Source: an uncultured Planctomycetia bacterium (GTDB lineage Bacteria > Planctomycetota > UBA8108 > UBA1146). From it: DNA of 64,000 nucleotides. Below, piece by piece: positions 10,780 through 48,213 of this stretch. The stretch's first letter is position 1; every line of letters begins with the position of its first letter. Position numbers and translations under genes: made by a program. The notes under the pieces were generated by a model. That model was not told where the DNA came from and made no database searches. It saw nothing but the letters and a program-made list of their open reading frames with translations. The stretch is taken from the NCBI GenBank assembly GCA_964422295.1, contig CAYRAM010000002.1, positions 24,052 to 88,051 of the forward strand. The letters are read 5' to 3'.

Positions 10780-12105
10780 ATGAGCAGTCTGAGTGGATTT
10801 ACTGCAATATTGAGATCCTTGGTTTTTGCTTTGCTGTTTTGTGGTGGGGCAACCGGGATCAGTTTTGCTGAAGAGAGCCCTGTGGCCACCGCTACCTGGG
10901 AAGTGCGTGAGGTCAAAGGCGATGATGAGTCCCTTTACCAGATCACCATTTACCAAGTGGATTCCCCGGGGGGCACCCGCTGGATCTGGAGAGCGGTCGA
11001 TGAGGAGAATGGTACCTACCCGGGTGGTTTCCCCATCGGATCTCTGCGATTGGCGAAGCGTGGCAAACCGAGGCCGGAACTCTTCGACCCCCTCTCTCCG
11101 GGTGTGACCCAGGCGCTGATCGCAATCCATGCAGCGGTCGAGGCCCAGGCCGGAGAAGGGTGGGCGGATGGAAATGCGGTCGGGATTCGTCGCAATCTGC
11201 CGGTGATCCGAACCGATGTTGCCGCAGAGTCCGGCTTCATTCTCAAGGGCAGCCTGAGTGTCGAGGAAGTGGAAATTCGGGGGGGCAAGAAACCTCTCAA
11301 ATTGACTTCGCTCGAAGAGGAACTCCGTTACGACGAGAAGGGGGGGCTGACCGAAGCTCATTGGTCTGCTCGCATGACTCGTGGTGGTGAAAAGTCACCG
11401 GGACGCGAGCTCCACCTGGTTCGCAAGGCCGTTGCCCTTCTTGAGGAAGAAGAGGGTGTAGAGGTTCAGAGGGGTTTCGAATTTCTCAAGCCGGTGGTGT
11501 CTGTGCTGCGGAGAGGGATGTCGCTGAAGGCCGTCGAATTGGCGGAAGAGATGTTCAAAAAGCAGCGCAAGGAGTTTGAAAAGGGTCCACTGGGTGACGT
11601 CGTCAAGGATGTCGATGTGTTGCTCAAAGAAATCCGCGAGCTTGCAGCGCAACCGCTCAATCCCGATGAACGTGCCAAGAATCTCCTCGGCAAACCTGCT
11701 CCCGATTTCACTCTCGAAGATCTGGATGGGGAAGAGATCAATCTTTCAGATTATCTGGGCAAGACGGTTCTGGTTGCCTTTTGGGGCTACTCGTGAGGGA
11801 TCTGTCGTGCGGAGTCTCCGCACCTCAGCAAGATTCAGAAGGAGTATCGCAATCAGGGTGTCGTCGTTCTGGCAATAAATGCCGACAATGATGGGCGTTC
11901 AAGGATCCGAGAATACGTCGAGGAAGAGGGTCTCCAACAGAAAATGCTTCTGCAGGGGGACGGTGTTGGGTTTCAGCAGTATCATATTAAACGGATGCCC
12001 ACGGTCTATTTTGTCGATCGAAAGGGGATTCTGGTTTCAAGAAGTCCCGGATTTCAGGACTTTTCCGAGCTTGAGAAATCTCTGAAAAGTACTTTGCGAA
12101 GGTGA
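10780..12105 (+). CDS. Selenocysteine-containing TlpA/ResA-like thiol:disulfide oxidoreductase (U-G-I-C active site) with a large N-terminal secreted domain. The TGA at 11794-11796 is read as Sec.
   Basis: ORF 10780..11796 ends '...APDFTLEDLDGEEINLSDYLGKTVLVAFWGYS' followed by TGA. Reading on in the same frame gives 'GICRAESPHLSKIQKEYRNQGVVVLAINADNDGRSRIREYVEEEGLQQKMLLQGDGVGFQQYHIKRMPTVYFVDRKGILV...' up to a TGA at 12103-12105. This aligns with the TlpA consensus '[37 protein letters not shown]', with the TGA exactly at the first Cys. There is a signal peptide at the N-terminus. Confidence 0.7.
11807..11823 (+). promoter_or_regulatory. Candidate bacterial SECIS hairpin 10 nt downstream of the in-frame UGA.
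   Basis: gugcgg-AGUCU-ccgcac: a 6-bp GC-rich stem with a 5-nt loop containing GU. It begins 10 nt after UGA 11794-11796, which matches the spacing of bacterial SECIS elements. Confidence 0.45.
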
Positions 12106-12141: not shown

Positions 12142-12250
12142 GCCGAGAGGCCGAGAAGCCGAGAGGCCGAGAAGACGATGGAAGACGGATGGGAGACCGA
12201 AGTAGGTTTCTGGTGCACCATGCCGCATTGCAAACATGCCGCATCGCAAA
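12142..12250. repeat. Two short tandem direct-repeat blocks in the leader of the dockerin-protein gene.
   Basis: (gccgagag/gccgagaa)x4 lies at 12142-12173. Two adjacent 16-mers, catgccgcattgcaaa and catgccgcatcgcaaa, lie at 12219-12250, ending about 27 bp before the ATG at 12278. Confidence 0.5.
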
Positions 12251-12277
12251 GATGTAACAAATAGGGAGAGAGATCCC

Positions 12278-13387
12278 ATGACTATGTTTCGCTATAGTTT
12301 GATTTTGGTCTTTTTGCTGTGTCCAGGAGTTCATGTCTTCGGTCAGGGCACCTGTGATATCACTTATTTTCTGACCGTCTCCGAATCGGATGACCTTCTG
12401 AGAACAGTGGCAGCATCTTCGATGACGGTCGAAGAGACGGTTTCACTGTCGATTCCCGGTGCTTTTGAACTGGACGAAGTCAGAGGATTGGCGATCGACC
12501 CGGTATCGGGGCTGTACTACATGCTGGGAATCGGAACTTTGCCGCCGAATCCGCCTGCGACAGTTCCGATCCTGTTCTACTACGATCCCGTAGGCCTCTT
12601 TACCAATCCGGTCGGATCCACCCTGCTCGATTTCAATGACATCGCCTTTTTGCCCAGTGGAGAGATTCGTGCTATCACCAATGTTCTGTCCAATTCAGAA
12701 GTCAATTATTGTGACCTCAATCTGTTGACCGGTGGTCCCACTGATCTGTGTCAATTTCCCAACGGCGATTGTGGTGAGTCGATCGCCATCAGTGGGGCGG
12801 GCCAGTTGTTCCGTGGTACGGGAGGTTGTGCCTTTGGTGCCCGTTTGCAGATTCCGGATCCCACTGGAGCGGTCGCTTGTGATCTGGACACCACAAACAT
12901 CGATCAAGTACTGATCGATGAGCCGGTCAGAACGATCACTTGGTGGGAACAGGAACAAGGATTTGTATGGGTCATGGGAGACGCCAACAATTCCATCTAC
13001 TTCCTCGAACTCGATGGCACGGCCACATTGCTCGGAACTGCGGATCATTCGATCAACGGACTTGCGATCATTACCATCCAGGGGCCGTGTCCACCGGCGG
13101 ATGACATCTTTATCCGCGGTGATTGCAATCTCGACCTCGGCGTCAATGTCGCAGATGCGGTGTTCCTCCTCTCAAATCTCTTTGTTCCCCAATCACCACC
13201 CCTCGGTTGCCGCGATGCGGGAGATGCCAACGATGATGGAGGAGTCAACGTTGCCGATGCGGTATTCCTCTTGTCGAGCCTCTTCGTCCCTAATTCCGCT
13301 CCCGTGCCCTTCCCCAACATCACGGATGGTTGTGGTGAAGATCCGACCACCGATGGACTGGATTGCCAGACCACCGGCTGCCCCTGA
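12278..13387 (+). CDS. Secreted protein with a C-terminal dockerin-like module.
   Basis: The start was moved to the ATG at 12278 (GGGAGAG RBS). Signal peptide 'MTMFRYSLILVFLLCPGVHVFGQ'. The C-terminus 'IFIRGDCNLDLGVNVADAVFLLSNLF...DAGDANDDGGVNVADAVFLLSSLFVP...PFPNITDGCGEDPTTDGLDCQTTGCP' contains twin Ca-loop repeats. Confidence 0.6.
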   Translation: MTMFRYSLILVFLLCPGVHVFGQGTCDITYFLTVSESDDLLRTVAASSMTVEETVSLSIPGAFELDEVRGLAIDPVSGLYYMLGIGTLPPNPPATVPILFYYDPVGLFTNPVGSTLLDFNDIAFLPSGEIRAITNVLSNSEVNYCDLNLLTGGPTDLCQFPNGDCGESIAISGAGQLFRGTGGCAFGARLQIPDPTGAVACDLDTTNIDQVLIDEPVRTITWWEQEQGFVWVMGDANNSIYFLELDGTATLLGTADHSINGLAIITIQGPCPPADDIFIRGDCNLDLGVNVADAVFLLSNLFVPQSPPLGCRDAGDANDDGGVNVADAVFLLSSLFVPNSAPVPFPNITDGCGEDPTTDGLDCQTTGCP

Positions 13388-16500: not shown

Positions 16501-16900
16501 GTTGACCATCGAAGGTGATCAGACGATCCATTTGGAAGCGTCGGATCTGGATATTCGCATTCACCAAAAAGAGGGCTGGAGCGCAGCGGAAGCCAAAGGA
16601 GTGGTCGTCGTCTTGTCGACGGAGATATCCCCACAACTCCATCGGGAGGGGCTGGTCAGGGAAGTGACGAGCCATGTTCAGGGAATCCGCAGGGAATTGG
16701 ATCTTTCATACGTCCAGAGAATTCGCTTATCTGTGGAGACAGTGGGGGAGTTGGCTCAAGCGGTGGAGGAGCATTCCAATCACCTGAAATCAGAGACCCT
16801 CGCAGAAGAGTTGGTTCTTCATGGAGAGAGTACCGGCGAGGTCAGAGAGTTTGAAATCGAGGGTTGCTCCGTGAAAATTGGCGTTGAACCCATCTCGTGA
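13505..16900 (+). CDS. ileS: Isoleucyl-tRNA synthetase of the type 2 (long, eukaryote-like) form.
   Basis: HIGH-class motif 'PTANGMPHPGHALTRAMKD' and KMSKS motif 'KMSKSLKNY'. It is about 1130 aa with editing-domain-like regions. The ATG at 13505 is preceded by GAGGAA. Confidence 0.93.
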   Translation: MSTSDESQNHGFEFPEPVSAPDFPQIEAEVRRYWDEHSIYQQSLKLRAGAEKYVFFEGPPTANGMPHPGHALTRAMKDLFPRYQTMRGRFCERKAGWDTHGLPVEIEVCKEMGIHSKDEIEEYGIEPFVRRCQKSVFRYVQEWESMTRNIGFWVDLEDPYATYHKSYVESVWWALKRLFDAGLLYQGEKIVWWWAQGGTGLSAGEVGEGYRQVDDPSVFIKLPVIDDAGQSTDESFVAWTTTPWTLPSNQFLAVHPEVKYSRLRDQESGEVLIIAKDLVESLSAKWKVEFEELGEVPGVELVGRRYRPPFDGFYSQYGEVSAELQSGGTEPILWRVVAADFVTTDSGTGIVHQAPAFGEIDHDVLLSERARFSDKGAVPLLCAVEPNGSFNEAAGSSYTDRWVKDCDKEITRELKEKGLLVHQEMYRHDYPYCPRAPKDALIQYPRHSWFIRTTEFVDDMLANNREITWLPEHIRDGRFGKYLESNVDWTLSRERFWGTPLPIWVCQESGQMEAIESFDELMGKPGVSGQEEFEKAREADPDLDENLKVHRPYIDEVTYDSPFADGARMQRVQDVIDCWFDAGCMPFAQWGFPHQGTDRFEAQFPADFISEAIDQTRGWFYALLSISTILFGPKGAARGDDRVSEDSFKNWPLPFKTCVVLGHLLGEDGAKMSKSLKNYKTPEYIFENEGADAMRWLFYAGQAPWTSLRFQEQAITEGQREFLLRLWNVYSFFSIYARIDGWVPSGDLTAEPGEDLELSDLDRWVLAELNSTIGKVRIALDAHDNLTAATALNAFVDGLSNWYVRRGRDRYWSSGMNSDKDAAQATLYHCLVTTSLLAAPFVPFVTEHLYGALVRSRGTEWPQSVHLCDYPQVNERFHDEDLCQRMALIREIASLGRACRSREKLRVRQPLPAVRIVLADPAWAPALEKDADLIAEELNVKSVEFVQDASEYVSYEVKPNFKAIGPRFGGAARHIAAALASHSEPAAIVEAANSGETVALTIEGDQTIHLEASDLDIRIHQKEGWSAAEAKGVVVVLSTEISPQLHREGLVREVTSHVQGIRRELDLSYVQRIRLSVETVGELAQAVEEHSNHLKSETLAEELVLHGESTGEVREFEIEGCSVKIGVEPIS

Positions 16901-16978
16901 CTGGGTCTGTAAACTTCAATAACGATCGGACTTGACTGCGGGGACAGGGACAAGCAGCAAACACGGAAGGAGAGAATC

Positions 16979-17563
16979 GTGGAGTGGTTTTCCAGCTTTG
17001 ATACTGCGTGTGAGTCTGCCCAGGAGGATTTGCGTCCTGTCCTTGTAATTTTGGAGGCGCCTGGCTGACTGGGGTGTAAAAGACTGGATGCCGTGACGTA
17101 TCCAGACCCTGAATTTCAAAAGGCAACTGCGGCGCTGGTCGCACCGATGCGCATCAATGTCACCGAAAGACACCCGGATTTCAGTGCTGTGGCAACGATG
17201 ACAAAAATACCCTACTCCCCCCGGATTCGTTTCTTCAGCAGCGATGGCAAGAGATTGCTTCGTGAGTGGACGGGCTGGTTGCCCACCAGCGAGTTTATTT
17301 CAGAAATGCACATTGCCCGTGCAATTGACCAACATGAACGCAAGGATCCGCTCGCTGCAGTGCAGGAATTTGGCATGGCATTGTCTGTCGCACCTGAAGG
17401 CCCCGCAGTAGCAGAGATTCTCTACCGCAGGGGAATGGCTTCATTCCTCGGAAACAAATTTGACATGGAGTTGCTGCGCAACGACTGGACCGCGGTCGTT
17501 GAAAACCACCCCGGAACACGCTGGGCTCTCTACGCCTCCGTCATCGAAGACGTGGATCGATAA
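16979..17563 (+). CDS. Selenocysteine-containing thioredoxin-like protein of the Thioredoxin_7 / DUF255-like family with a U-L-G-C active site. The TGA at 17066-17068 is read as Sec.
   Basis: A GTG at 16979 is preceded by GGAAGGAGAG and gives 'VEWFSSFDTACESAQEDLRPVLVILEAPG', then TGA. Reading on in the same frame gives 'LGCKRLDAVTYPDPEFQKATAALVAPMRINVTE...' (the same frame as the annotated ORF 17093..17563). It aligns residue-for-residue with the paralog at 36301-37308, which reads '...AKTEGKDIMINFTGSDWCSWCKKLDSEVFSKPGFDES...', with Sec in place of the first Cys. Confidence 0.6.
17084..17105 (+). promoter_or_regulatory. Candidate SECIS hairpin 15 nt downstream of UGA 17066.
   Basis: cuggaugc-CGUGAC-guauccag: an 8-bp stem including one G-U pair, with a 6-nt loop that contains GU. 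Confidence 0.35.
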
Positions 17564-17578
17564 CTTTCGACACCATCC

Positions 17579-20500
17579 TCAGAGACAATCGGGGAGATCT
17601 TCCTGGCACTCCAAATTGTCATCGGTGGGATCTTCTCCGCAATTGAAGGGGCCGGGATCAGGTGGTGGGGATTGTCCCATGAACAGATATCCCAGCAGAT
17701 TGATTCCGTCGGATAGATCCAGGGTTCCGTCGTCGTTGTAGTCACAGGCATCGAAGCATGCCGGTGGCTGCCCACCACCGAATTGGTAACCGAGGAGGAA
17801 CAAGACATCGCCCAGGTCCACCTGACCATCCTCGTTGCAAAGGCCCCTTTTGAATTGGGGTGCATCGGGAGGGGGTGGGGGGGCCTGAATGATTGCTCCG
17901 AGGATGGGGAATGGAGATGCCGCTTGGCTCTCCATGAAAACTTCCGCTGCGACCGGAGCGACATCGGCGACGAAACCGAAGTTGTACATCCACCCCCAGC
18001 GAAGGGGATTCGCCACCGATCCAGAATTCTCATCCCAAGTTTGCCAACGCAAGCCTGTGGCTGTTTGCTGAAACTCCCATGGTGTGTCTGAATAGAAGGG
18101 GGATCGAGTCAAAGGCGCATGAAAGATGGGGGAAGTAATCTCAACTCCTGGATCGAGGGGAATCTCGAATGCTCCGATGGCTGCACCAAAGTTGAGATTG
18201 TAGAGGGCATATTCATACTGCCAGGTTCCATTTCCCAAGTCGGTGACCTTTGAAGCGAGGTACAGATGGCCATCTCCGATGCCCGGCGGTGAAACAGTGA
18301 CGACTTGTGCGCCTGGCCAGGCATCCTGAACCGGAGAATTGACCGCTTCCGCAGTCATGTCGATGTTCCAGGTGCCGCCGGGAGAGCCGCTGATGGAGAC
18401 CGGTTCCCAGGCATGATTGGTGAAGGGATCGACATCCGCCGGTTGGATGACGTAGACCTCTGCCAACAATTGGGATCCGGGGTTTTGTTGCGGATCCAGA
18501 TCCGCATCTTCGACACTGAGGCGCTCCTCGATGGCATTCCATGGACCCGTATCCTGGGAGATGTAAGAGCCTTCCCAGGTAAATGAACCGGTCCAAGGTT
18601 CGATCTCTGATCGGGGACCCATATTGATCTGCGCAGCATTGCCAGAGGCACCGTAGGTGTCGGAACACCCGATCCCTGTCTCCTGATTGGTGGGACTGGG
18701 TTGACAGCCGAATCCGCAAGCGTCCGCCTGTGCAGAACTCCAGCCATGCTTCGCCCACGATCCGCCGATCTGAATGATCCTGTCGTCGTCCACACGGAAC
18801 ATATTGAAGATCATCATCGGATGACGGGGGTCTGGATTGGCATACCAGTGCAAGGGATCGGTACCACCGTTGCAGATCACCGACTCCATTCCAAAACTGG
18901 CGATGGACCCCTCCCTGGCGACTTGCACAACATTGTTGGCATTGCCGATGATCAAATCCTGACCGGATGCGGGGGTCGAAGTGGTATCAAAGAATCTGAG
19001 ACATGCGAGTTCCACTTCTCCGACCTGGCCGGCAACTTCATCGGAGATACGCAAGATCCACGTTCCGATTTGCAATGGGCCGGTGAAGGCATAGAGATTG
19101 CCACTGGAGGGTATCCAGTAACCGCCGTCGTCAAAAATTTGCCCTGGAGCAGATCCACTCATCCACCAAGTCAGATTCAATCCCGATCCCGCGGCATTTT
19201 GCGGCATGTTGTGGAGGACTTGAGTGGCACCGTTGGGTGCGGACAGTTCGACGATGAGTTGACTGGCATCCGGATGGGAGGTTTGCAGTTGCAATTGCAC
19301 ATCCAGAACACTCTGTGCCGGATCTCCGGAAACAAGGAGGGGGATCTCCAGCGGTTCTCCGGCATCCGGAATGCTGATGCTTGAAGGAGTTGCACAACTT
19401 TCGACCGTAATGGGGCCGAGCACCGCAGTGGACAAGCACTGGGCATAGCCGGTCTGTCCGCTGAAGAGGGGGGTCACACAAACTTCGATCGTCCCCGGAT
19501 TGGCTGCGGTGGGCATCGTCTCCGAGACGATATCGCCGGGGAAGAAGGGCCCGGAGACAGTGGTTTCGGAACCGGGCGCAGAGAAGGTCAAAGCGTCGCA
19601 CTCTCCCGAAAGTTCAGCGGTGACTTCCACCTCCCAAGAGCCCGGCACGGAGGTCGCGCTGATGGTGGAGATCACATCAGGTTCATACTCGAGCAAGAGA
19701 TCACCGGAGCCGAAGTCGTTGCCGCCCCAACCTCCGATTCGGAAGTGCAGAACTTCTCCCTCGAGGACGGAGAGATCCTCGATCCTGGAATTGTAGGAAG
19801 GCATTCCGTTCCCCTGAAGGGTGCAGTTGGACTCGTCCCCGCTGCAGGCACGCTGGCTCAAGTCATCACACTCTCCACTGTAGACGACCATATCCGTATC
19901 AAAGTCGACGATTTCACAAGTCTTCAGCGAAATGAAACCGGCCCCGGGACTGACCCAGCGGAACCAGACATCCGCGACCATTTGGCCGAGGGCATTGCAG
20001 CCGGTAATCGAAGAGTAAGGCTCTGGACTGGTGGTGGCACCGGTGGTGGACAACCGATTGAGTCCGAGGACTGCGCTGCGGGCGTCGAGACATTCATCAT
20101 GGTCGATGCCGGGAGGTGGAGGTGGAGGAGGTGGTGAGATGCTGACCTCAAAGGTGCCGCCTCCCAAATCTTGATCTCCCCAGCCACCGATGCGGATCAA
20201 CAGGGTTTCACCGACGACGACGGGGATGTCGACCAAAACTGTATTCCAAGAATTGGTGGTTCCCTGAACAAGGCAGGAGGGCGAATCACCATGGCAGGCG
20301 ATGGGGGTGAGATTGCCACAAGAACCGGAGTAAACGATGACGTCGGTATCAAAATTGACGGTGTCGCAGGTGGTGAGGGTCATCAGTCCTGTTTCGGGGA
20401 CAACCAGGGAGAACCACACGTCGAAGTAGGCTCCGCCCAAAAAGGTGCCGGGGCAAGTGTCTACCGGGATCGGATCTGTGCCTGTGGTCGCCTGGGTGGT

Positions 20501-20647
20501 GTCCACGGCTTGTACACCGGGAACGATACTGATCGCACCGGAGCATTCATCATTGATCGCCTGGGAGAAAAGCGTTGTTGGAACAGTCACTGCGACGACG
20601 CAACTGGTCAGAAGCAGGATCCAATAGAGGGACATCAATGGTTTCAC
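17579..20647 (-). CDS. Large secreted multidomain protein with a duplicated N-terminal Cys-containing domain, a proprotein-convertase-type P-domain and a C-terminal dockerin-like module.
   Basis: Signal peptide 'MKPLMSLYWILLLTSCVVA'. Two repeats of about 110 aa are present ('NDECSGAI...DVWFSL...LTTCD' and 'HDECLDAR...DVWFRW...LKTCE'). A poly-Pro run 'PPPPPPPPG' follows. The P-domain-like segment reads 'SISIPDAGEPLEIPLLVSGD...LQLQTSHPDASQLIVELSAPNGATQVL'. The C-terminus 'CNEDGQVDLGDVLFLLGYQF...CDYNDDGTLDLSDGINLLGYLF...PFNCGEDPTDDNLEC' matches the dockerin-like module. Confidence 0.65.
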   Translation of the reverse strand: MKPLMSLYWILLLTSCVVAVTVPTTLFSQAINDECSGAISIVPGVQAVDTTQATTGTDPIPVDTCPGTFLGGAYFDVWFSLVVPETGLMTLTTCDTVNFDTDVIVYSGSCGNLTPIACHGDSPSCLVQGTTNSWNTVLVDIPVVVGETLLIRIGGWGDQDLGGGTFEVSISPPPPPPPPGIDHDECLDARSAVLGLNRLSTTGATTSPEPYSSITGCNALGQMVADVWFRWVSPGAGFISLKTCEIVDFDTDMVVYSGECDDLSQRACSGDESNCTLQGNGMPSYNSRIEDLSVLEGEVLHFRIGGWGGNDFGSGDLLLEYEPDVISTISATSVPGSWEVEVTAELSGECDALTFSAPGSETTVSGPFFPGDIVSETMPTAANPGTIEVCVTPLFSGQTGYAQCLSTAVLGPITVESCATPSSISIPDAGEPLEIPLLVSGDPAQSVLDVQLQLQTSHPDASQLIVELSAPNGATQVLHNMPQNAAGSGLNLTWWMSGSAPGQIFDDGGYWIPSSGNLYAFTGPLQIGTWILRISDEVAGQVGEVELACLRFFDTTSTPASGQDLIIGNANNVVQVAREGSIASFGMESVICNGGTDPLHWYANPDPRHPMMIFNMFRVDDDRIIQIGGSWAKHGWSSAQADACGFGCQPSPTNQETGIGCSDTYGASGNAAQINMGPRSEIEPWTGSFTWEGSYISQDTGPWNAIEERLSVEDADLDPQQNPGSQLLAEVYVIQPADVDPFTNHAWEPVSISGSPGGTWNIDMTAEAVNSPVQDAWPGAQVVTVSPPGIGDGHLYLASKVTDLGNGTWQYEYALYNLNFGAAIGAFEIPLDPGVEITSPIFHAPLTRSPFYSDTPWEFQQTATGLRWQTWDENSGSVANPLRWGWMYNFGFVADVAPVAAEVFMESQAASPFPILGAIIQAPPPPPDAPQFKRGLCNEDGQVDLGDVLFLLGYQFGGGQPPACFDACDYNDDGTLDLSDGINLLGYLFMGQSPPPDPGPFNCGEDPTDDNLECQEDLPDCL

Positions 20648-24632: not shown

Positions 24633-26270
24633 ATGCGGACCGCATCACACCGTGTCAATTCGACTCACGAACCGTTGTACCCGTGCCGGCTACTTCGGGC
24701 AGGGTCGCAATTGCTATGGGTGAGCATCGTGCTCTTTGCGACTCTGGGGGACACCCGTGCGATGGAATCGATGGTCCCTTCTGAATCGGAACGGAAACCC
24801 GGTGAACTGATTCTCCCCGAGAAGACGTCAGGGAAATTCGATCGAGAAATCCTGCAAGAATTGTGGCCAGGAGAAATCCTCGTCGAAAAGTGTATTGTTC
24901 CAATTGAAGGAGAATTGAAGAGGGCGATCGTTCAGAGATGCAGAGTCAAGACGACGGATCACCTCAGTACGATCTTCAGAATTCGCGATGCCAAGAGTCA
25001 GGAATTGGGACACGTGGTGATTCTTGATGAGATTGGCAAATATCGGCCAATCACCTTTTTTGTTGCCCTCGATGCAAGAGATCATGTCCTCGATCTTCAG
25101 GTATTGGTGTACCGGGAACATATTGGCAAGGAGATTGAGTCTGCACGATTCACACGCCAATTCAGGGATAAACGATCTTCCAGCATCCTGAAATTGCATC
25201 GGGATATCCGCAATTTGTCAGGGGCAACATTGTCGGCTCGCGCTGCAGTTCGAGCGGTGAGAAGAGCCTTGGCCACCGTGGAAGAGGCCGTGCGTGCAGA
25301 CGATGGGCTCCTCTGGCAACGCCATTCGGGACCTGTTCTCACTTACGGAGACCTCGGGGGAGGGGAGCCCTTCTCTGCCTCCGGGATGGAGCCATCGCCT
25401 CCCGCCGAGCAGGAAATCGGCAAGACCTCCGGCAGTACCGTGTCTTTCCGAAACGGTGAAGAGAAATTGATCCAGAGGGCGCGGCCGGCGATGGGAACGA
25501 TCCTGAAAATCGACGTTTTTGGAGATCACGCCCTCGCGGCAGTCGATGCCGCTTTTGCTGAAGTGGAACGCATCGAATCCCTTCACAGCCGTTGGCGACG
25601 CGACAGTGATGTTTGCAAGGTTGAGGCCGCTTCCACCGGGCAAGCCGTCAAAGTTTCTGCTGAGACGATCGAAGTGGTCGAGAGAGCGTTACAAATGTCA
25701 CGGGAGAGTGGCGGCGCTTTCGACCTGACTCTGAAAAAAGACGGATACAAATCGGTCAAGATCGATGCGCACGAGCAAACGATTACTCTGTTGAAGCCTG
25801 AGTTGATCCTCGACCTTGGCGGCATTGGCAAAGGCTATGCCCTCGATAGAGCGGCTGCCATTCTTGAATCTTATGGTTGCTCCAGTGCGCTCCTCGACTT
25901 TGGTGGACAGTTGCTCGCATTGGATCCTCCTCCGGGTGAAGAGGCGTGGCCAGTGGGTATCTTCGACCCACGTGATGGCAGGACGGTCTTGCATCAGTTG
26001 CCTCTGGTGAGGTCATCCCTCGCCACCACGGCGAACTATGAACGAGGAGACCACCTCGTCCATCTCCTCGACAGAGAATCAAGCCACCGTGTTCTGACCA
26101 CGTCAGTCATCTCTGAGAGTGCTACTCAAGCGGACTTGCTCAGTACCACGGTTGCTCTTCTCGATCAGGATCGGGCTCAGATGGTTCTCAACAGTCAGCC
26201 CGGTGCTTCTGCGGTTCTCCTGATTGAAGGAGAGGATGAGCCCAGGTTCATGGGTCGCTCCAAGCGCTGA
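24633..26270 (+). CDS. Membrane-anchored fusion of an FMN-binding domain (flavinylation target) with an ApbE-type FAD:protein FMN transferase.
   Basis: N-terminal TM 'LLWVSIVLFATLG'. The FMN_bind domain carries the flavinylation motif 'DIRNLSGATLSARA'. The C-terminal half has ApbE signatures ('ILDLGGIGKGYALDRAA', 'ALLDFGGQLLAL', 'TSVISESATQADLLSTT'). Confidence 0.7.
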   Translation: MRTASHRVNSTHEPLYPCRLLRAGSQLLWVSIVLFATLGDTRAMESMVPSESERKPGELILPEKTSGKFDREILQELWPGEILVEKCIVPIEGELKRAIVQRCRVKTTDHLSTIFRIRDAKSQELGHVVILDEIGKYRPITFFVALDARDHVLDLQVLVYREHIGKEIESARFTRQFRDKRSSSILKLHRDIRNLSGATLSARAAVRAVRRALATVEEAVRADDGLLWQRHSGPVLTYGDLGGGEPFSASGMEPSPPAEQEIGKTSGSTVSFRNGEEKLIQRARPAMGTILKIDVFGDHALAAVDAAFAEVERIESLHSRWRRDSDVCKVEAASTGQAVKVSAETIEVVERALQMSRESGGAFDLTLKKDGYKSVKIDAHEQTITLLKPELILDLGGIGKGYALDRAAAILESYGCSSALLDFGGQLLALDPPPGEEAWPVGIFDPRDGRTVLHQLPLVRSSLATTANYERGDHLVHLLDRESSHRVLTTSVISESATQADLLSTTVALLDQDRAQMVLNSQPGASAVLLIEGEDEPRFMGRSKR

Positions 26271-26304
26271 TATCAAGGGGACCATCAAACAGGAGGTGGA
26301 GTCG

Positions 26305-28245
26305 ATGAACAGGGAACAGGGCAGAGATACGCTCCGTATCTCCATCGCCGGAAATCCCAATGTCGGCAAATCGACCCTCTTCAATGCCCTCGTTTCGGGG
26401 CGGGCACGAGTTTCCAACTATCCCGGAATCACCGCCGAAGCATTAATCGGCAGAGGGACGTGGGGCGACGTCCAGGTTGAGGTCACCGATCTCCCCGGTT
26501 GTTACGGCATGCAACTCGATCTACCTGAGTCACGGCTCTGTAAAGAACACTTGTCTTCACCGCAAAGACCAGACCTCATCGTCAATTTGATCGATGCGGT
26601 CAGTTTGCGTCGCAACTTGAACATGCTTGCAGAGTGTCTTCAGGAAAATAGTTCTCACATCGTCATGGTGACCCGCACCGATGAGGCCCGACTGAGGGGG
26701 ATCGAGATCGACTTCGACCGCTTCAGCGAGTTGGTCGGCGTGCCGGTGATCGAGTTGGCTCACAGGAGTTCTCACAAGCAAGAACCATTGAAGGAGATAC
26801 TGCTCGAAGCAGCAAACTCTGCTCCTGCAAGGATCGAAGTGGGTGACCCCTCTGAGTGGGGTGACGATGTTGCTGCTGCAGTCACTCGACCCGTCAATCC
26901 CGAAGAAGCCCGCAAGAGGAGAAAGAGGGAGGATCGACTCGATGGTCTTTTGCTGCATCCGATTTGGGGATTGGGATCTTTTCTTCTCATCATGGGATTG
27001 CTTTTTGCCAGCGTATTTTGGTTGGCACAATTTCCCATGGAGTGGCTCGATACTTTCTTTGCGTCAGTCTCGTCGTGGGTGGGATCCAGTATGCCCGAGG
27101 GCGAGGTCAGGGATTTGGTCACGGAGGGAATCATCGGCGGAGTTTCGGGAACGCTGATTTTTCTGCCGCAAGTCTTGCTGCTCTTCTTTCTGATCAGTCT
27201 GCTCGAAGAAACCGGATATTTGGCCAGGGCGGCACTCGTTGCAGACCGCTGGCTGAGACCCTTTGGTTTGCCAGGTCACTCCTTCGTTCCATTGCTCTCC
27301 AGTCATGCCTGTGCCATCCCTGGCATCCTCTGTACCCGGCTCATCCCCGATCGCCGGGACCGATTGGCTGCGATTCTGGTGGCGCCATTCCTCTCATGTT
27401 CAGCGCGGTTGCCGGTATACCAACTCCTGGTGGGATTGCTCTTTCCCGGAAATCCACTCGTCGCAGGAATGGCGTTTGTGGGCTGTTATCTCCTGGGCGC
27501 ATTGGCCGCCATCATGACCGCGTTTCTGGTCCGTCAGTTTTTGCTTCCAGGACGCAGCCCCAATCTCATTCTTGAGCTTCCTCCCTTCCAGAGGCCATCG
27601 ATGTTGGGCTCCCTCCATACCGCTGGGCACCGGGGCTGGCTCTTCATCAAAAATGCGGGAAGCGTCATCCTGTTGATGTGCATCATATTGTGGTGGTTGG
27701 GGAGTTACCCAAAGGTGGGAGAGAGTCCCCAGGTGGTCGATTTACGTGCGCAAGCGGCGGCGACCGCCACAGCAGAGGACGCACTTGCGGTAGGGATGGA
27801 AGCGGATGCTCTTGCCGCAAAAGAGAGTACTTCCGCTTCATACCTGGGACAGATCGGAAAAACAGTGGAGCCGATCTTTGCACCGATCGGTGCCGATTGG
27901 CAATTGTCGATCTCGGTGATGGCGAGTTTTGCGGCTCGGGAAGTGTTCGTATCAGCCACAAGCGTTATTCTCGGCACAGGCGAGGAAGGTGATGCGCAAA
28001 CATTGATGGAGAAGATCGAAAATTCAACAAGAGACGATGGTGCACCCCTTCTGACTCCTTCAGCGGCAGCGGGACTGCTGGTGTTCTTTGTGCTCGCGAT
28101 GCAGTGTCTGCCGACCCTCGCAGTGACCCGCAAGGAGGCGGGTGGATGGAAGTGGGCATTACTGCAATTCTTGTGGATGAGTGTCCTTGCTTGGAGCTTG
28201 GCAGCATTGACCCGGGGTATTCTCAAGTTTTCAGGAGTGGAATAA
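26305..28245 (+). CDS. feoB: Ferrous iron transport protein B.
   Basis: G-domain 'ISIAGNPNVGKSTLFNALVSG', 'DLPGCY' and 'NLID' motifs, followed by the polytopic membrane domain. The ATG at 26305 is preceded by AGGAGGTGGA. Confidence 0.9.
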   Translation: MNREQGRDTLRISIAGNPNVGKSTLFNALVSGRARVSNYPGITAEALIGRGTWGDVQVEVTDLPGCYGMQLDLPESRLCKEHLSSPQRPDLIVNLIDAVSLRRNLNMLAECLQENSSHIVMVTRTDEARLRGIEIDFDRFSELVGVPVIELAHRSSHKQEPLKEILLEAANSAPARIEVGDPSEWGDDVAAAVTRPVNPEEARKRRKREDRLDGLLLHPIWGLGSFLLIMGLLFASVFWLAQFPMEWLDTFFASVSSWVGSSMPEGEVRDLVTEGIIGGVSGTLIFLPQVLLLFFLISLLEETGYLARAALVADRWLRPFGLPGHSFVPLLSSHACAIPGILCTRLIPDRRDRLAAILVAPFLSCSARLPVYQLLVGLLFPGNPLVAGMAFVGCYLLGALAAIMTAFLVRQFLLPGRSPNLILELPPFQRPSMLGSLHTAGHRGWLFIKNAGSVILLMCIILWWLGSYPKVGESPQVVDLRAQAAATATAEDALAVGMEADALAAKESTSASYLGQIGKTVEPIFAPIGADWQLSISVMASFAAREVFVSATSVILGTGEEGDAQTLMEKIENSTRDDGAPLLTPSAAAGLLVFFVLAMQCLPTLAVTRKEAGGWKWALLQFLWMSVLAWSLAALTRGILKFSGVE

Positions 28246-28250
28246 TCACA

Positions 28251-28367
28251 GTGACCTTCGATGATCCGCAGTTCATATTTGTGACGCTATTGGCCATTGT
28301 TGCAGTGGTAGTTCTCTTATGGAGACGGGGTGGTGGTTCATCCGACGATTGCGGTTCCTGCTCTTAA
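28251..28367 (+). CDS. FeoB-associated Cys-rich small membrane protein (tentative).
   Basis: About 38 aa immediately after feoB: one TM 'FIFVTLLAIVAVVVLLW' followed by 'RRGGGSSDDCGSCS'. GTG start with a modest RBS. Confidence 0.35.
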   Translation: MTFDDPQFIFVTLLAIVAVVVLLWRRGGGSSDDCGSCS

Positions 28368-28464
28368 TGAAACGTGATTCCTCGCGGTCGTATGGTATCG
28401 TATCCGTGGTCAGGTTGCCCCGAGGGGCCTGATCTCAGCAAGTTGATATTGAGAAAGGAATCCC

Positions 28465-29619
28465 ATGCTTCCAATTAGGTTAGTGAATCTCGCCTTTGCC
28501 CTGTTGTTACTGGGCACTGCGGCGTTGATTGCAGCGCCTCCTGATTCTGCAGACAAAATCGATCAGAAGCAGGAAGAGGAGGCAAAAAAGGCTTTTGATT
28601 CCATCTACGAAAAGATGAATGAAGCACAAGATGCTTACTACAAGCCCTTCATCGATGCCCGGGAGAAGGGATTGAGCCCGGAGGAAATGGACAAAATCGA
28701 ACTCGATCCGGAACTTGAGCCGGTCAAAATCGTGGGTCCGGAACTGTTGCGTGGAATCGAGAAATTTGCCGGGACTGAGGCCGCACTCCAGGCTTGTGAC
28801 CGGCTGATGGGGATGGCAGGCAGAAGCGATACCCAGGGGTGGATGGTCGAAAAGGTAGTCGCTGTTCTCAAAGCCCATTATCTCAAGAATCCAAACTTGT
28901 TGAATGTGGTACGCTTCGCCCATTACGGCAGTGACGCTCCGGTGATGAAGGAGTTCCTCGGTACAGTGGTGAGTGAGTCCCCCCATAGGGAGGTACAGGC
29001 CGCAAGCTGCTACTCGCTGGCAAAGATGCTGGGCAAGAAAGAGGAAACCCGGGGTGAAGGTTTGGCGATGCTGAAAAAGGTGCAAACCGACTTTGGGGAT
29101 GTCCCATACAGGGGGGATCGTGTCTATGCGGACAAGGTCAAGGGCGACCTCTTCGAAATGGAAAATCTGCAAATCGGATGCGTGGCACCGGAAATCATCG
29201 GCAAAGAGATCTCAGGAAGTTTAATGCAGCTTTCTGCCTTCAGGGGCAAAGTGGTGCTACTCGATTTCTGGGGAGACTGGTGAGGACCTTGCAGGGCGAT
29301 GTACCCACACGAGCGGTCGCTCGTAGAAAAATACTCAGCAGATACATTTGCCATCGTCGGCATTAATTCCGACTCCACGATTGAAAAAGCCAGGGAAGTG
29401 GTCAAAGAGAACAAACTCAACTGGCTCAACTTCTACGATGGAGGCACCGATGGTCCCATTGCGACGCGGTGGAATGTCAGTGGTTGGCCAACGATCTACC
29501 TCATCGATGCCAAAGGAGTGATTCGATTCAAGGATGTTCGTGGCAAGAAGTTGGATGCGGCCATCGAGGTGCTGTTGAATGAAACGAAAGCTGAAAAAGC
29601 AGTAGAGGCTGGCAAGTAG
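28465..29619 (+). CDS. Selenocysteine-containing TlpA-like thiol:disulfide oxidoreductase with a U-G-P-C active site. The TGA at 29281-29283 is read as Sec.
   Basis: ORF 28465..29283 ends '...GKVVLLDFWGDW', then TGA. Reading on in the same frame gives 'GPCRAMYPHERSLVEKYSADTFAIVGINSDSTIEKAREVVKENKLNWLNFYDGG...GWPTIYLIDAKGVI' (ORF 29299..29619 is in the same frame). This reproduces the TlpA consensus 'FWASWCGPCR', with Sec at the first Cys. Signal peptide at the N-terminus. Confidence 0.7.
29309..29324 (+). promoter_or_regulatory. Candidate SECIS apical hairpin with a GGUC loop, 25 nt downstream of UGA 29281.
   Basis: acgagc-GGUC-gcucgu: a 6-bp stem with the loop GGUC, the same apical-loop sequence as the E. 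coli fdhF SECIS. A lower helix is possible with the 5' flank. Confidence 0.35.
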
Positions 29620-29647
29620 TTTTCGCATCTTCGAATCGCGATCAGGT

Positions 29648-30334
29648 TTATCCTGGAGATTCTTCTTTCGAAGAATCTCCAGGATTTTTTTCGTCGGTTC
29701 CAAAACCCATTGGGCACCCACCTGAGGAGGATTTCTCATCTGAGTTCTTTTTAGGAAACAGGGGAGCTTGGGGTGGAGGGTCAGCTTCGCCTTTTCCACG
29801 CCTGCGAAGTGGTGCCCACCACAGTTCATCGAGACAAGCCAAAGAACCGAGTGAGAGTGTCAGCAGCAGGAGTGATCCACCGAGAATTTGGGAAAAGAGA
29901 GCCAGGGTACTCCCCGAGGCGATCATCAAAGGCGAAAAGAGAAGCCCTGCCAGGCTGCCATATCCCGTAAACGCGAGGGTGACCTTGATGGAGGTCGACC
30001 AGGGAGTCAGTTCAAAGAGATGGAGGATGACGAAGAGGAGCATCGCCAAAGAAAAGATGTGATCGTGGATGAATGCGAGCAATTCACGGGGTGTCTTCTC
30101 TGACATCATTTCTTCCGCATCGAGATCGTTCTCATTGCCGAGAACCCATTCACGGGCATTTTCAGGTGTAAATCCTCCCGCACTGCTGGAGTATTGGAGA
30201 GTTGCCACAAAGCACCCTCCAATGACCGATAGCAGAAAGAGTGTCAGCAGCCAGCGAGTGGAGGTGTTTGCTCGGGCGAGAGTGAAACCGGCCTGTTTGT
30301 AGAACTGGGTCAAGTCAGCGCTCCCCATCCTCAC
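29648..30334 (-). CDS. Hypothetical polytopic membrane protein.
   Basis: About 5 predicted TM helices. No family was recognised. The 3' end overlaps the terminator hairpin. Confidence 0.4.
   Translation of the reverse strand: MRMGSADLTQFYKQAGFTLARANTSTRWLLTLFLLSVIGGCFVATLQYSSSAGGFTPENAREWVLGNENDLDAEEMMSEKTPRELLAFIHDHIFSLAMLLFVILHLFELTPWSTSIKVTLAFTGYGSLAGLLFSPLMIASGSTLALFSQILGGSLLLLTLSLGSLACLDELWWAPLRRRGKGEADPPPQAPLFPKKNSDEKSSSGGCPMGFGTDEKNPGDSSKEESPG
29653..29693. terminator. Rho-independent terminator after the selenoprotein gene.
   Basis: cctggagattcttctttcgaagaatctccagg followed by attttttt. Confidence 0.55.
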
Positions 30335-30389
30335 GATGACAGATGACTTTGATTTTGGTCAGGACTGATAGGCTCAATGAGAATGCCGC

Positions 30390-30623
30390 TCAGCAATTCA
30401 GAGGAACAACTCTCAGTGTCGCTGCGATGTCTTCGCTGAGTCCCAGCCGTTGGCCTTTGATCTCAAGGACACAGGTACCGGAGTTGTGACAAACACGCAG
30501 TTCACAATCGTCACACAATCCCATCGATTCAAGGAGAGGGCGTTGATCGTGGGGAATCGATTCGGCGATGAGTCTACCGCTTTCACCCTGCTGCATATCG
30601 AAGAGTGAACGCATGCGGGACAT
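30390..30623 (-). CDS. feoA: FeoA-family small protein.
   Basis: An SH3-like FeoA pattern 'LFDMQQGESGRLIAESIPHDQRPLLESMGLCDDCELRVCHNSGTCVLEIKGQRLGLSEDIAATLRVV'. The start was taken at the internal ATG (MSRMRSL). Confidence 0.55.
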   Translation of the reverse strand: MSRMRSLFDMQQGESGRLIAESIPHDQRPLLESMGLCDDCELRVCHNSGTCVLEIKGQRLGLSEDIAATLRVVPLNC

Positions 30624-30913
30624 CGTCTCGTTGGCTGCGGCTTCAAGGTTTGAGGCCCCGGAAGCGGGTGTGGGCTGGGAATGAGGGTAATAAGGTGATT
30701 CTTGATCGGCCTTCATGACTCTCCAGCAAAGGTGACTTCAGGTACTACCAACAGTGTCCGCCTCGACACAGAAACACCCATCGCTGCCGAAAGGTATCTT
30801 CCCTGATCGGATAGGAGACTTGTTATCGAAGGGGAGCGGCATTAACCTGCCCTCCGGTTTACAAAGTCGCCCAAGAGAGTAGTTGTACCGGTTGTTTAAG
30901 GAACCGTCAACCT

Positions 30914-30929
30914 GTTTGGGTAGCCAAAC
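30914..30929. promoter_or_regulatory. Palindromic operator-like site GTTTGGGTAGCCAAAC (copy 3) in the divergent feoA / DtxR-family promoter region.
   Basis: 14 of 16 positions match copy 1. It sits just upstream of the predicted regulator start, consistent with autoregulation. Confidence 0.4.
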
Positions 30930-30942
30930 GAATGGGGTCTCA

Positions 30943-31503
30943 TTGATTGATTGGCGTGAGTTTGACCAGAATCCGGTGAGCCACTCCGCTGCCCACCACC
31001 TGACTTCGATTCAGCAGTTGCTGGATGAGCAGGGGTACGCGCGCGTCTCAGATGTTGCCCGCAAACTGGGGATCACCCGGGGGAGTGTCTCGGTGACCCT
31101 GAAAGGTCTGAGGCAACGGGGTCTCGTGATCGAGGATCAGCACAAACATCTGGGACTCTCGGATGAGGGGCTGAGAATTGCCCGTGGGATTCACACAAAG
31201 AGGATCCTCTTCAAGGCATTTCTCCAGGACTCCTTGGGTCTGCCTGCTGAGTTGGCAGAGTTGGACGCTTGCAAGGTGGAACATCTGGTGAGCGATGTGA
31301 CTGCGGAGGCTTTGGCAATCTATATGGAGCGTAATGGAATCGGCGAGGGTGCTTCCAAAGACCGCAAGGAACAAGTAAAGGCATTGGAAGTCAGTATCAA
31401 AGATGGTCGCATCGATGCTTTCCCTGGTGAAGATGTTGAGGCATTTTCAGAACAGTTGCAAAGCAGGAGTGATGCGGGAAGCAAGGGGCAAACAGATGAG
31501 TAG
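30943..31503 (+). CDS. DtxR/MntR-family metal-dependent transcriptional regulator.
   Basis: 'HHLTSIQQLLDEQGYARVSDVARKLGITRGSVSVTLKGLRQRGLV' matches the DtxR winged-HTH, followed by a dimerisation/metal-binding region. The start is uncertain (TTG 30943 or GTG 30976). The ORF track starts at 30883, but that would place the palindrome inside the ORF. Confidence 0.7.
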   Translation: MIDWREFDQNPVSHSAAHHLTSIQQLLDEQGYARVSDVARKLGITRGSVSVTLKGLRQRGLVIEDQHKHLGLSDEGLRIARGIHTKRILFKAFLQDSLGLPAELAELDACKVEHLVSDVTAEALAIYMERNGIGEGASKDRKEQVKALEVSIKDGRIDAFPGEDVEAFSEQLQSRSDAGSKGQTDE

Positions 31504-31945
31504 TTATTCCCGTGAAGACGCTTTGCGTCGTTTGAATGAGTTGTTGGCCGAAGAGTTGGAAGCATCGATCCGTTACTTGCATTTGAGTACACTCGTGCAG
31601 GGCATCGACCGACTGGTGATTCAAAAAGTTCTTCAAGAGAATCACGAGGAGACGATTGAGCATGCGCAACAGGTTTCAGAAAAGATCATTCAGGTCGGTG
31701 GAGTACCACAACCGAAAATCAATCTGGAGTTGACCGGGAACAAGTGCACCGGGATCGAAGCTCTTCAGATCGCACTGCTCTTTGAGCAGGCTGCCTTGGA
31801 CGCTTACGGAGAATTTCTTGAAGTAGTCGAGGGCAGCGGGGATGTGATCCTCGAAGAATTCGCTCGTCAACAAGTGGCAATCGAATCGGAGCATGTCTCA
31901 GAATTGCAAATGCTCATAGGAGATACCACCGTTGGCAGCAAGTGA
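31496..31945 (+). CDS. Ferritin-like diiron-carboxylate protein (bacterioferritin/Dps-like).
   Basis: Ferroxidase-type motifs 'EELEASIRYLH', 'ENHEETIEHAQ' and 'ESEHVSEL'. It is about 149 aa. Its ATG overlaps the regulator stop, so it forms an operon with the DtxR-family gene. Confidence 0.6.
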   Translation: MSSYSREDALRRLNELLAEELEASIRYLHLSTLVQGIDRLVIQKVLQENHEETIEHAQQVSEKIIQVGGVPQPKINLELTGNKCTGIEALQIALLFEQAALDAYGEFLEVVEGSGDVILEEFARQQVAIESEHVSELQMLIGDTTVGSK

Positions 31946-36300: not shown

Positions 36301-37308
36301 TTAGTGATCAGGAACGCCATCTCCGTCGTGATCATGATTTCCTTCGGAGTGGTCCAGATTGATGATCGCTTGCTCGATCATCTTTTTGCCTTGGGGGTTT
36401 TCGGCAACGAGGGGATCAGCGAGCATGCGCTCAAGAAACTTGCGAGCCTCAGGCTTGCGATCCTGCTCAGTGAGCCACTGTTGACAGAACCAGAGGGCAT
36501 TTAGCGTATCGGGCCCGGAAATCCCCGGATTTTCGCTCAGAAATGCTACCAGCGTCGGATAATTGGGTTCGCTGGTGTTCAGCAATTCTCTCAGGCGCAT
36601 GCTCGCCTTGTGAGATGCGACCAATTTTTTCAACTCCTCGTTCTCTGACTTTTCCGCCATCTCCAGGTACTTGGAGTAACCGGGGTAGCCGAGAAGTTCA
36701 TTTTTGGTCATGACCCCAAAGACATCGCTGAGCATGGTCGAAGCTTCTTCATCTTTGGAGGAGAGGAGCTTTTTCAGTTTTTCACCATCGGTGCGCAACT
36801 CGGTGAGATTCTTGAGGTAAGCTTCCGGACCTCCTGGAAGGTAGCCGGTTCTCCCGTAGGGGCGCATCTCTGCATCGGCGAGAATGATGGTGGGGTAGCC
36901 GCTGACACTCATTTCATCGCGGTGCTTGTCATTCAATTCCGGGGAAACCACTTTGGCTTTCAGTTCTTCCGCCTGGGGGAAATCCAGAAACAGGTAGATG
37001 AACTGCTTTCCTGCAGACTCATCAAATCCGGGTTTGGAAAAGACCTCACTGTCGAGTTTCTTGCACCAACTGCACCAGTCACTGCCGGTGAAATTGATCA
37101 TGATGTCTTTTCCTTCAGTCTTGGCCTTCTTCATGGCTGCGGAAATATCCGTCTCCCACGTGAGGCCTGGATGCTCAGCAGTGTCAGTCTGCTCCTCACC
37201 GGAGGATTCTTCCTTTTTTCCAGCGGGTTCCTCTTGTGCGGGAATGTATGGTGCAGCGAAGAGTGTCAAAACAAATAATATCAGGGCCCCGATCAGCGGC
37301 GACTTCAT
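36301..37308 (-). CDS. Secreted thioredoxin-like protein of the Thioredoxin_7 / DUF255-like family with a CxxC.
   Basis: Signal peptide 'LIGALILFVLTLFAAP' and active site 'INFTGSDWCSWCKKLDSEVF'. It is a paralog of the Sec protein at 16979. Confidence 0.7.
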   Translation of the reverse strand: MKSPLIGALILFVLTLFAAPYIPAQEEPAGKKEESSGEEQTDTAEHPGLTWETDISAAMKKAKTEGKDIMINFTGSDWCSWCKKLDSEVFSKPGFDESAGKQFIYLFLDFPQAEELKAKVVSPELNDKHRDEMSVSGYPTIILADAEMRPYGRTGYLPGGPEAYLKNLTELRTDGEKLKKLLSSKDEEASTMLSDVFGVMTKNELLGYPGYSKYLEMAEKSENEELKKLVASHKASMRLRELLNTSEPNYPTLVAFLSENPGISGPDTLNALWFCQQWLTEQDRKPEARKFLERMLADPLVAENPQGKKMIEQAIINLDHSEGNHDHDGDGVPDH

Positions 37309-46621: not shown

Positions 46622-46670
46622 TGATTTTCCCGCCATCGAAGTGGCGGGTGCATTGAAACCGAGGTATTCG

Positions 46671-48212: not shown

Positions 48213-48213
48213 G

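Follow-up and report, generated by a model that had tools for sequence, protein, structure and literature searches.

The locus described here raises the question of whether a TGA codon ends a gene or lies within one. In a 64,000-nucleotide stretch of contig CAYRAM010000002.1 from an uncultured Planctomycetia bacterium (hereafter the window), an open reading frame (ORF) of 29 codons, VEWFSSFDTACESAQEDLRPVLVILEAPG, extends from a GTG at 16979 to a TGA at 17066–17068, beyond which the same frame reads LGCKRLDAVTYPDPEF... up to a TAA at 17564–17566. An initial annotation, made from the sequence alone, had interpreted the two ORFs as one selenoprotein gene; the GTG with its ribosome binding site, the 29-codon ORF, the TGA and the continuation of the frame were all located as described when the sequence was read again. 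The interpretation as one gene is supported by orthologs, a hairpin, a domain match and the existence of both selenocysteine (Sec) and cysteine forms of the protein. We consider it highly probable that 16979–17566 encodes one 194-residue cytoplasmic selenoprotein with a Thioredoxin_7/DsbD-gamma-like fold, in which the UGA is decoded as Sec via a bacterial selenocysteine insertion sequence (SECIS). The locus comprises the following elements:

16965–16974, + strand: Shine-Dalgarno-like sequence GGAAGGAGAG, 4 nt 5′ of the GTG at 16979, read directly from the sequence
16979–17566, + strand: predicted selenoprotein coding sequence from a GTG start to the TAA at 17564–17566, with 194 sense codons, one of which is for Sec
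16985–17236, + strand: Thioredoxin_7/DsbD-gamma-like thioredoxin-fold domain, residues 3–86 according to Pfam and approx. 1–110 according to the model of a homolog
17066–17068, + strand: predicted Sec-UGA (residue 30), which opens the U-L-G-C redox motif
17075–17077, + strand: TGT, Cys33, the presumed resolving cysteine of UxxC; an invariant Cys for which TGC and TGT alternate freely among orthologs
17084–17105, + strand: putative bacterial SECIS hairpin with an 8-bp stem and the 6-nt apical loop CGUGAC at 17092–17097
17306–17563, + strand: C-terminal all-helical TPR-like domain, approx. residues 110–194 (about 85 residues)

Conservation of the reading frame across the TGA

Species-representative genomes and metagenome contigs were scanned for orthologs, which yielded 40 orthologous loci at 62–76% identity. 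Twenty-two of these are GTDB species genomes, and nearly all are labelled as marine Planctomycetota metagenome-assembled genomes (MAGs). The locus L014 (QNYK01000079.1) is titled ‘Bacillota bacterium MAG 7’; it has 68% identity and shares the synteny of ileS, selenoprotein and large protein with the Planctomycetota MAGs, and its taxonomic label is probably wrong.

In each of the 40 loci, the frame is unbroken but for one stop within ILEAPG*LGCKRL. This stop codon is TGA in all 41 sequences (window plus 40 loci), and TAA, TAG and Cys codons do not occur at this position in any of them. A word-index search of 5.8 billion proteins detected 21 homologs, each of which is N-terminally truncated at or after the TGA site, the majority starting at ‘MTYPDP’, i.e., at the GTG of Val39. 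The GenBank entries consulted for the orthologs are truncated hypothetical proteins.

Upstream of the TGA (27 codons), the mean pairwise diversity at codon positions 1/2/3 was 0.31/0.17/0.57; on the other side, in codons +13 to +150, it was 0.22/0.14/0.52. Since the two segments display an equal pattern, both flanks of the TGA evolve in the manner of a coding sequence, and in a common frame. For codons +1 to +5 (LGCKR), which lie between the TGA and the hairpin, the values are 0.06/0.00/0.46. Thus, these codons must be translated, because their amino acids are invariant while their synonymous sites vary freely.

Judged from one window, the TGA might be a nonsense mutation in a pseudogene, or a sequencing or assembly error in a Cys-type thioredoxin-like gene. 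However, the same TGA recurs in 40 independent loci, which come from different assemblies and species, as well as in six distant homologs (see below), and purifying selection is apparent on both of its sides. This conservation refutes the explanation, the probability of which we regard as negligible.

The GTG at 16979 aligns with ATG in most orthologs, and the position of the Shine-Dalgarno sequence is occupied in the orthologs by GGAG/GAGG-type purine runs at equal distance from the start codon. The N-terminus is fixed by in-frame stops, which several orthologs carry 1–7 codons 5′ of the aligned start. In the orthologs L018, L019 and L022 (also L038–L040), there is no ATG, GTG or TTG from the previous stop to the TGA; ATC replaces ATG approx. 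87 nt before the TGA and 5 nt past GGAGGAGGG, and translation may initiate at this ATC. A scan for promoters and terminators returned nothing beyond shuffle expectation. We conclude that the sequence from GTG 16979 to TAA 17566 is a single translated frame with an in-frame TGA.

A thioredoxin domain spanning the TGA

The joined 194-residue product, with Cys substituted for the stop, was compared with the Pfam hidden Markov model of Thioredoxin_7 (PF13899), as the initial annotation had suggested. A match with an e-value of 7.5e-12 and 45.6 bits (cut-off 27) was obtained, covering residues 3–86 against profile positions 2–81 of 83 and running through the TGA. The ORF from 17093 alone matched no Pfam family. 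While the assignment to Thioredoxin_7 was thereby confirmed, the additional designation as DUF255-like was not, as Thioredox_DsbH/DUF255 (PF03190) scored 13.5 bits (e-value 0.069), under the gathering threshold of 27. The best relatives of solved structure (PDB) are the C-terminal (gamma) domains of DsbD (e-value 5.5e-7), and in the alignment with them, residue 30 coincides with the leading Cys of their active site, CVAC. A further Thioredoxin_7 protein is encoded within the window by a paralog at 36301–37308. The joined product had been said to align with this paralog position by position; the TGA does fall on the first Cys of its CSWC motif, but the alignment is weak (19% identity over 52 residues, e-value 0.003) and contains one gap. 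The TGA is therefore kept at the position of the catalytic Cys of a thioredoxin fold.

TGA is also the commonest stop in the window, where it ends 28 of 46 genes including ileS directly upstream. Accordingly, the genetic code is not reassigned in this organism, and a genome-wide reassignment of UGA was ruled out.

If the TGA of the target gene were likewise a true stop, the locus would encode a 29-residue leader peptide and a separate protein starting at GTG 17093 or ATG 17147. Every public gene call consulted treats the locus in this way, and in two loci an upstream ORF of 29 or 34 residues is called separately. GTG 17093 is the start in the mechanical ORF list and in the gene calls of most orthologs. 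The initial annotation had objected that an ORF from this GTG has no ribosome binding site and excludes the active site; both points hold, but the public call for the window gene (P0001, 138 aa) begins further downstream, at Met57. Moreover, this GTG is the GUG within the invariant loop of the hairpin described below. The downstream ORF would encode a thioredoxin fold that lacks both strand 1 and the active site, and no domain match was obtained for it, whereas the Thioredoxin_7 match and the DsbD-gamma alignment both cross the TGA. Between the TGA and the GTG lie the codons with invariant amino acids and free synonymous sites, and the Cys homologs are single full-length proteins (see below). 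Two independent ORFs in the orthologs had been named as the observation that would speak against a joined gene. The opposite was seen, with a TGA in 40 of 40 loci and coding-type conservation on both sides. A true stop is thus extremely improbable, and we return to the joined gene.

A hairpin with SECIS geometry

The 8-bp stem-loop reported at 17084–17105, starting 15 nt past the TGA, is present: CUGGAUGC (17084–17091) pairs with GUAUCCAG (17098–17105) and encloses the loop CGUGAC (17092–17097). The 50 nt from the UGA fold with −16.2 kcal/mol (z = −2.8), and 2 of 200 shuffled sequences were equally good. One copy of the 18-nt hairpin core is found in the window, with approx. 0.01 expected by chance. 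An extended lower stem (17071–17075 with 17106–17110), which is possible in the window sequence, was left out, since RNAalifold does not recover it in the consensus of the orthologs.

In the published model of bacterial SECIS elements (PMC13188914), an upper stem of 4–16 bp carries an apical loop of 3–9 nt, which is separated from the UGA by 16–37 nt. One of the first two bases of the loop is a G, mostly with a G or U after it, and the minimum free energy is ≤ −7.5 kcal/mol. The SECIS prediction that had been recommended for this hairpin was favorable in all these respects, with a 6-nt loop, G at position 2 followed by U, 8 bp, 23 nt between UGA and apical loop, and −11.4 to −16.2 kcal/mol.

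Using 24 sequences, RNAalifold predicts exactly the 8-bp helix, with a consensus energy of −11.4 kcal/mol. Among 22 distinct sequences, 98.9% of cells are paired, compared to 8–44% when the 3′ partners are slid by 1–3 columns. One compensatory change from A-U to G-C was found (L006), and six of the eight pairs alternate between G-U and A-U or between G-C and G-U. Over the gene, the normalised synonymous codon entropy averages 0.60 (standard deviation 0.13), but for codons +6 to +12, which contain the hairpin, it drops to 0.08. None of the other seven-codon segments, 170 in all, has a value this low, and the six lowest segments all overlap the hairpin. Such invariance is a stronger signal than the covariation, and it demonstrates selection on the hairpin at the RNA level.

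Sec and Cys forms of a wider family

When 1.84 billion cluster representatives were searched exhaustively with HMMER, the part of the target after the TGA serving as query, 108 proteins were retrieved. Approximately 26 are full-length Cys forms of 186–221 residues, which have 24–28% identity and match from their residue 33–53 onward. These proteins have the two-domain architecture of the target, and the alignment shows C-x-G-C at the position of U-L-G-C in about 22 of the 26. Homologs with Cys at the TGA position, which had been proposed as a check, therefore do exist, namely as distant full-length proteins. For four Cys-form loci, precomputed matches to Thioredoxin_7, Thioredoxin_2 and DsbH are available.

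About 60 other proteins of the search are truncated forms of approx. 150–165 residues, starting directly past the motif, typically with ‘MDTVTYP’. Six truncated homologs (24–39% identity) were read as DNA. An in-frame TGA was present in all six, in the contexts HAPG-U-LGC, TPG-U-VAC, FAPG-U-LGC, WDPG-U-YGC, WDPG-U-FGC and FKPT-U-GGC (consensus (P/T)(G/T)-U-x-(G/A)-C), and so was the hairpin core GGAURCCGUGACGUAUCC (6/6). In contrast, the hairpin is absent from the four Cys-form genes read as DNA, even where the peptide is identical; for instance, MDAVTY in the Cys form L044 is encoded as AUGGAUGCUGUCACCUAU, without a hairpin. Since Cys-form genes with the same peptide do not have it, the hairpin tracks the TGA and not the peptide. 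In all Sec forms read, down to a protein identity of 24%, the 18-nt SECIS core overlies the codons of the peptide motif M/L-D-x-V-T-Y-P. At the level of 50%-identity clusters, about 60 look truncated at the Sec site versus about 26 of the Cys form; this estimate is an extrapolation from the six truncated clusters checked, all of which had TGA. The C-terminal domain is conserved family-wide, with the motif PEALYW...W..L...P.S.WA.

Identity of the residue inserted at the UGA

The window was scanned for further pairs of same-frame ORFs split by a TGA, and two more candidates were obtained:

10780–12105, + strand: TlpA/ResA-like candidate selenoprotein, 441 residues, TGA at 11794–11796, FWGYS-U-GICRAESPHL
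28465–29619, + strand: thioredoxin-fold candidate selenoprotein, 384 residues, TGA at 29281–29283, FWGDW-U-GPCRAMYPH

In the first candidate, matches to AhpC-TSA (e-value 1e-23) and Redoxin cross the TGA. Twelve syntenic loci retain this TGA together with a hairpin, GUGCGGA-GUC-UCCGCAC, that lies 13 nt 3′ of it. The TGA of the second candidate is crossed by matches to Thioredoxin_8 (e-value 8e-17) and AhpC-TSA, and a hairpin ACGAGC-GGUC-GCUCGU with the loop GGUC is located 27 nt past it. Around this second candidate, iron-handling genes are found (FeoB, 26224–28245; FeoA, 30390–30716, − strand), and the iron cluster at 26224–31945 also contains a DtxR-type iron-dependent repressor (30883–31503) and a ferritin-like protein (31403–31945).

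Several results weigh against the decoding of the UGA as Sec. SelA, SelB and SelD were detected by Pfam and NCBIfam neither among the approx. 44 proteins of the 64-kb window nor in the fetched flanks. A tRNA-Sec was not found either, as neither the window nor 30 loci contained a tRNA according to ARAGORN. Further, the covariation of the hairpin is weak, with one compensatory pair and a score attained by 39 of 500 shuffles, because the hairpin is nearly invariant. Finally, there is no matching Rfam model, a scan of 16900–17300 having returned only a chance match to a snoRNA at an e-value of 5. This last null result is uninformative, since bacterial SECIS elements as a class are, to our knowledge, not represented by any Rfam family. 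With regard to the decoding machinery, a complete selA/selB/selD set is documented in some other Planctomycetes (PMC4807772); from this and from the three Sec-type genes in the window we infer that the machinery exists in this organism as well.

The lack of Sec machinery in the window and flanks would fit an alternative in which a near-cognate or suppressor tRNA reads the UGA as Cys, Trp or Gly and the hairpin is a generic stimulator of read-through or pausing. However, the UGA is placed exactly on the nucleophilic Cys of CxxC, which is the classic Sec site, and the hairpin has bacterial SECIS geometry including the G-U of the loop. If Cys were the residue needed, a TGY codon would provide it, as in the Cys forms; yet TGA is found in 47 of 47 TGA-form sequences. 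In addition, the two other UxxC genes of the window show the same pattern. We hence judge read-through with a standard amino acid to be very unlikely, and Sec to be the highly probable residue.

Predicted fold and proposed mechanism

A fold model was obtained with AlphaFold for the Cys homolog P0040, which is 28% identical to the target, using a 26-sequence alignment (predicted local distance difference test, pLDDT, 92.8; predicted template modelling score, pTM, 0.88). In this confident model, five helices follow a thioredoxin fold, the first helix of which has the CxxC at its N-terminus. When it was searched with Foldseek, DsbH, DsbD-gamma and thioredoxins ranked first. The YbbN/CnoX structures 3qou and 3qdn were also hit, over 210–214 columns (e-value approx. 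2.5e-6, root mean square deviation 11–12 Å, TMq 0.38–0.39, 11–13% identity). A single-sequence AlphaFold model of the target’s post-TGA part was unusable (pLDDT 49.5). For the ortholog P0013, there is one precomputed TPR_2 match. Because the target starts directly with the thioredoxin-fold domain (M-E-W...), no signal peptide precedes it, and a cytoplasmic location is expected.

We propose the following mechanism. With the ribosome at UGA 17066–17068, the hairpin at 17084–17105 would serve as a bacterial SECIS and recruit SelB-GTP-Sec-tRNA(Sec), and selenocysteine would be inserted at residue 30 in place of termination. In the thioredoxin fold, U30-L-G-C33 would be located at the N-terminus of helix 1. 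The protein would act as a thiol-disulfide (selenylsulfide) oxidoreductase, with Sec30 as the attacking nucleophile, which would make a Se-S bond with Cys33 and be recycled by a reductant. The TPR-like helical domain probably recruits or selects protein partners, as in the Trx-TPR ‘chaperedoxins’. In this scheme, Sec as opposed to another residue at the UGA, the binding of SelB, the redox chemistry and the partners are predictions, drawn from the comparisons given above.

Neighboring genes offer few clues to the function. In relatives of the target, a Flavin_Reduct (PF01613) gene adjoins one Cys form and one Sec form (L045, 1577–2065; L048, 17–493), and a divergent LysR regulator adjoins two Cys forms (L044, 19–918; L046, 1–895). 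These may be a reductant partner and a redox regulator, respectively.

Genomic neighborhood

The gene ileS is found upstream in nearly all loci, and a convergent gene for a 1022-residue secreted-type protein lies downstream throughout the clade. An operon with ileS was considered and rejected, because ileS is approx. 3.2 kb away in six loci, which leaves room for an intervening gene; the link looks syntenic rather than functional.

Two other observations concern the remainder of the window. Three large, secreted-looking proteins (12236–13387, + strand; 17579–20647, − strand; 55011–57056, + strand) have similar Cys-rich C-terminal tails, which read ...GCGEDPTTDGLDCQTTGCP, ...NCGEDPTDDNLECQEDLPDCL and ...DCGIAPPEAQLPCTEHPSCP and may be a shared sorting or anchoring motif. 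At 43728–54876 (+ strand), seven consecutive amidohydrolase genes (PF01979, PF07969) form a tandem paralog array, in which one match is weak and below the Pfam cut-off.

Comparison with known families

NCBIfam (June 2026) includes many selenoprotein-specific models, but all matches of the target are far below threshold (DsbD NF001419, 32.9 vs. 330 bits; TsoB, 25.6 vs. 805; NF041383, 22.6 vs. 275). In the case of NF001419, only model positions 465–570 of 574 are matched, i.e., the C-terminal domain. DsbD-gamma and Thioredoxin_7 proteins belong to the same thioredoxin-fold subfamily as the target. Compared to DsbD, however, the target is predicted to be soluble, without signal peptide or membrane domain, to have Sec for the first Cys, and to possess an extra C-terminal helical domain. 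Neither DsbD-gamma and DsbH nor the products of the two TlpA-like genes of the window are cytoplasmic, as the target is predicted to be.

The nearest catalogued selenoprotein family is VPGUxxT type 2 (NF041383, ‘OS_HP5’), which likewise has Sec after Pro-Gly in a thioredoxin-like domain and matches the target weakly over model positions 6–130 (e-value 7e-5). It differs from the target, which has APG-U-x-G-C with a resolving Cys instead of Thr, and 194 residues versus 287 in the model. The only Thioredoxin_7 selenoprotein named in PMC9312934 and PMC13188914 is the Trx7/PDZ selenoprotein NF041199, in which Sec comes second (CxxU). The target has UxxC and no PDZ domain, and it does not match NF041199.

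The Prx-like and TlpA/ResA-like UxxC selenoproteins resemble the target in having UxxC in a thioredoxin fold and a hairpin just downstream. The pair of this type in the window (10780–12105 and 28465–29619) belongs to the AhpC-TSA/Redoxin subfamily, with other SECIS sequences and, unlike the target, with a signal-like segment and a long domain at the N-terminus. The kind of selenoprotein found most often in bacteria is a thioredoxin-fold UxxC protein whose gene has a hairpin close behind the UGA (PMC13188914). We thus regard the target as a genuine, mis-annotated selenoprotein gene of a kind that is itself well known. Its family appears to be uncatalogued in PMC9312934, PMC13188914 and NCBIfam; older metagenome surveys may list it under generic names such as ‘thioredoxin-like’ or ‘thiol:disulfide interchange’.

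CnoX/YbbN resembles the target, as modelled, in its layout of an N-terminal thioredoxin fold and a C-terminal helical TPR-like domain, and in the cytoplasmic location predicted for the target. The structures superpose poorly, however, and a relationship at the sequence level was not detected; this is more probably an analogy of architecture than membership. As a tentative and rather doubtful extension of our results, the target could be the founding example of an uncatalogued, large, mostly marine and Sec-dominated family with a near-invariant SECIS, i.e., a cytoplasmic Trx-TPR ‘seleno-chaperedoxin’ analogous to CnoX.

Implications

What is known about Sec decoding is unchanged by this finding. 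Its consequence for annotation is that the public gene calls consulted all lose the catalytic Sec and the first beta-strand, and what remains are domain-less ‘hypothetical proteins’ of approx. 155 residues. Once the recoding is taken into account, dozens of marine Planctomycetota genomes regain a thioredoxin-fold oxidoreductase. The conserved 18-nt SECIS over a conserved peptide motif is a simple DNA signature for locating the family, which is also a natural test case for SelB-binding and protein constraints acting on the same codons. The target and the other two UxxC genes of the window jointly indicate that this clade uses selenium for redox chemistry.

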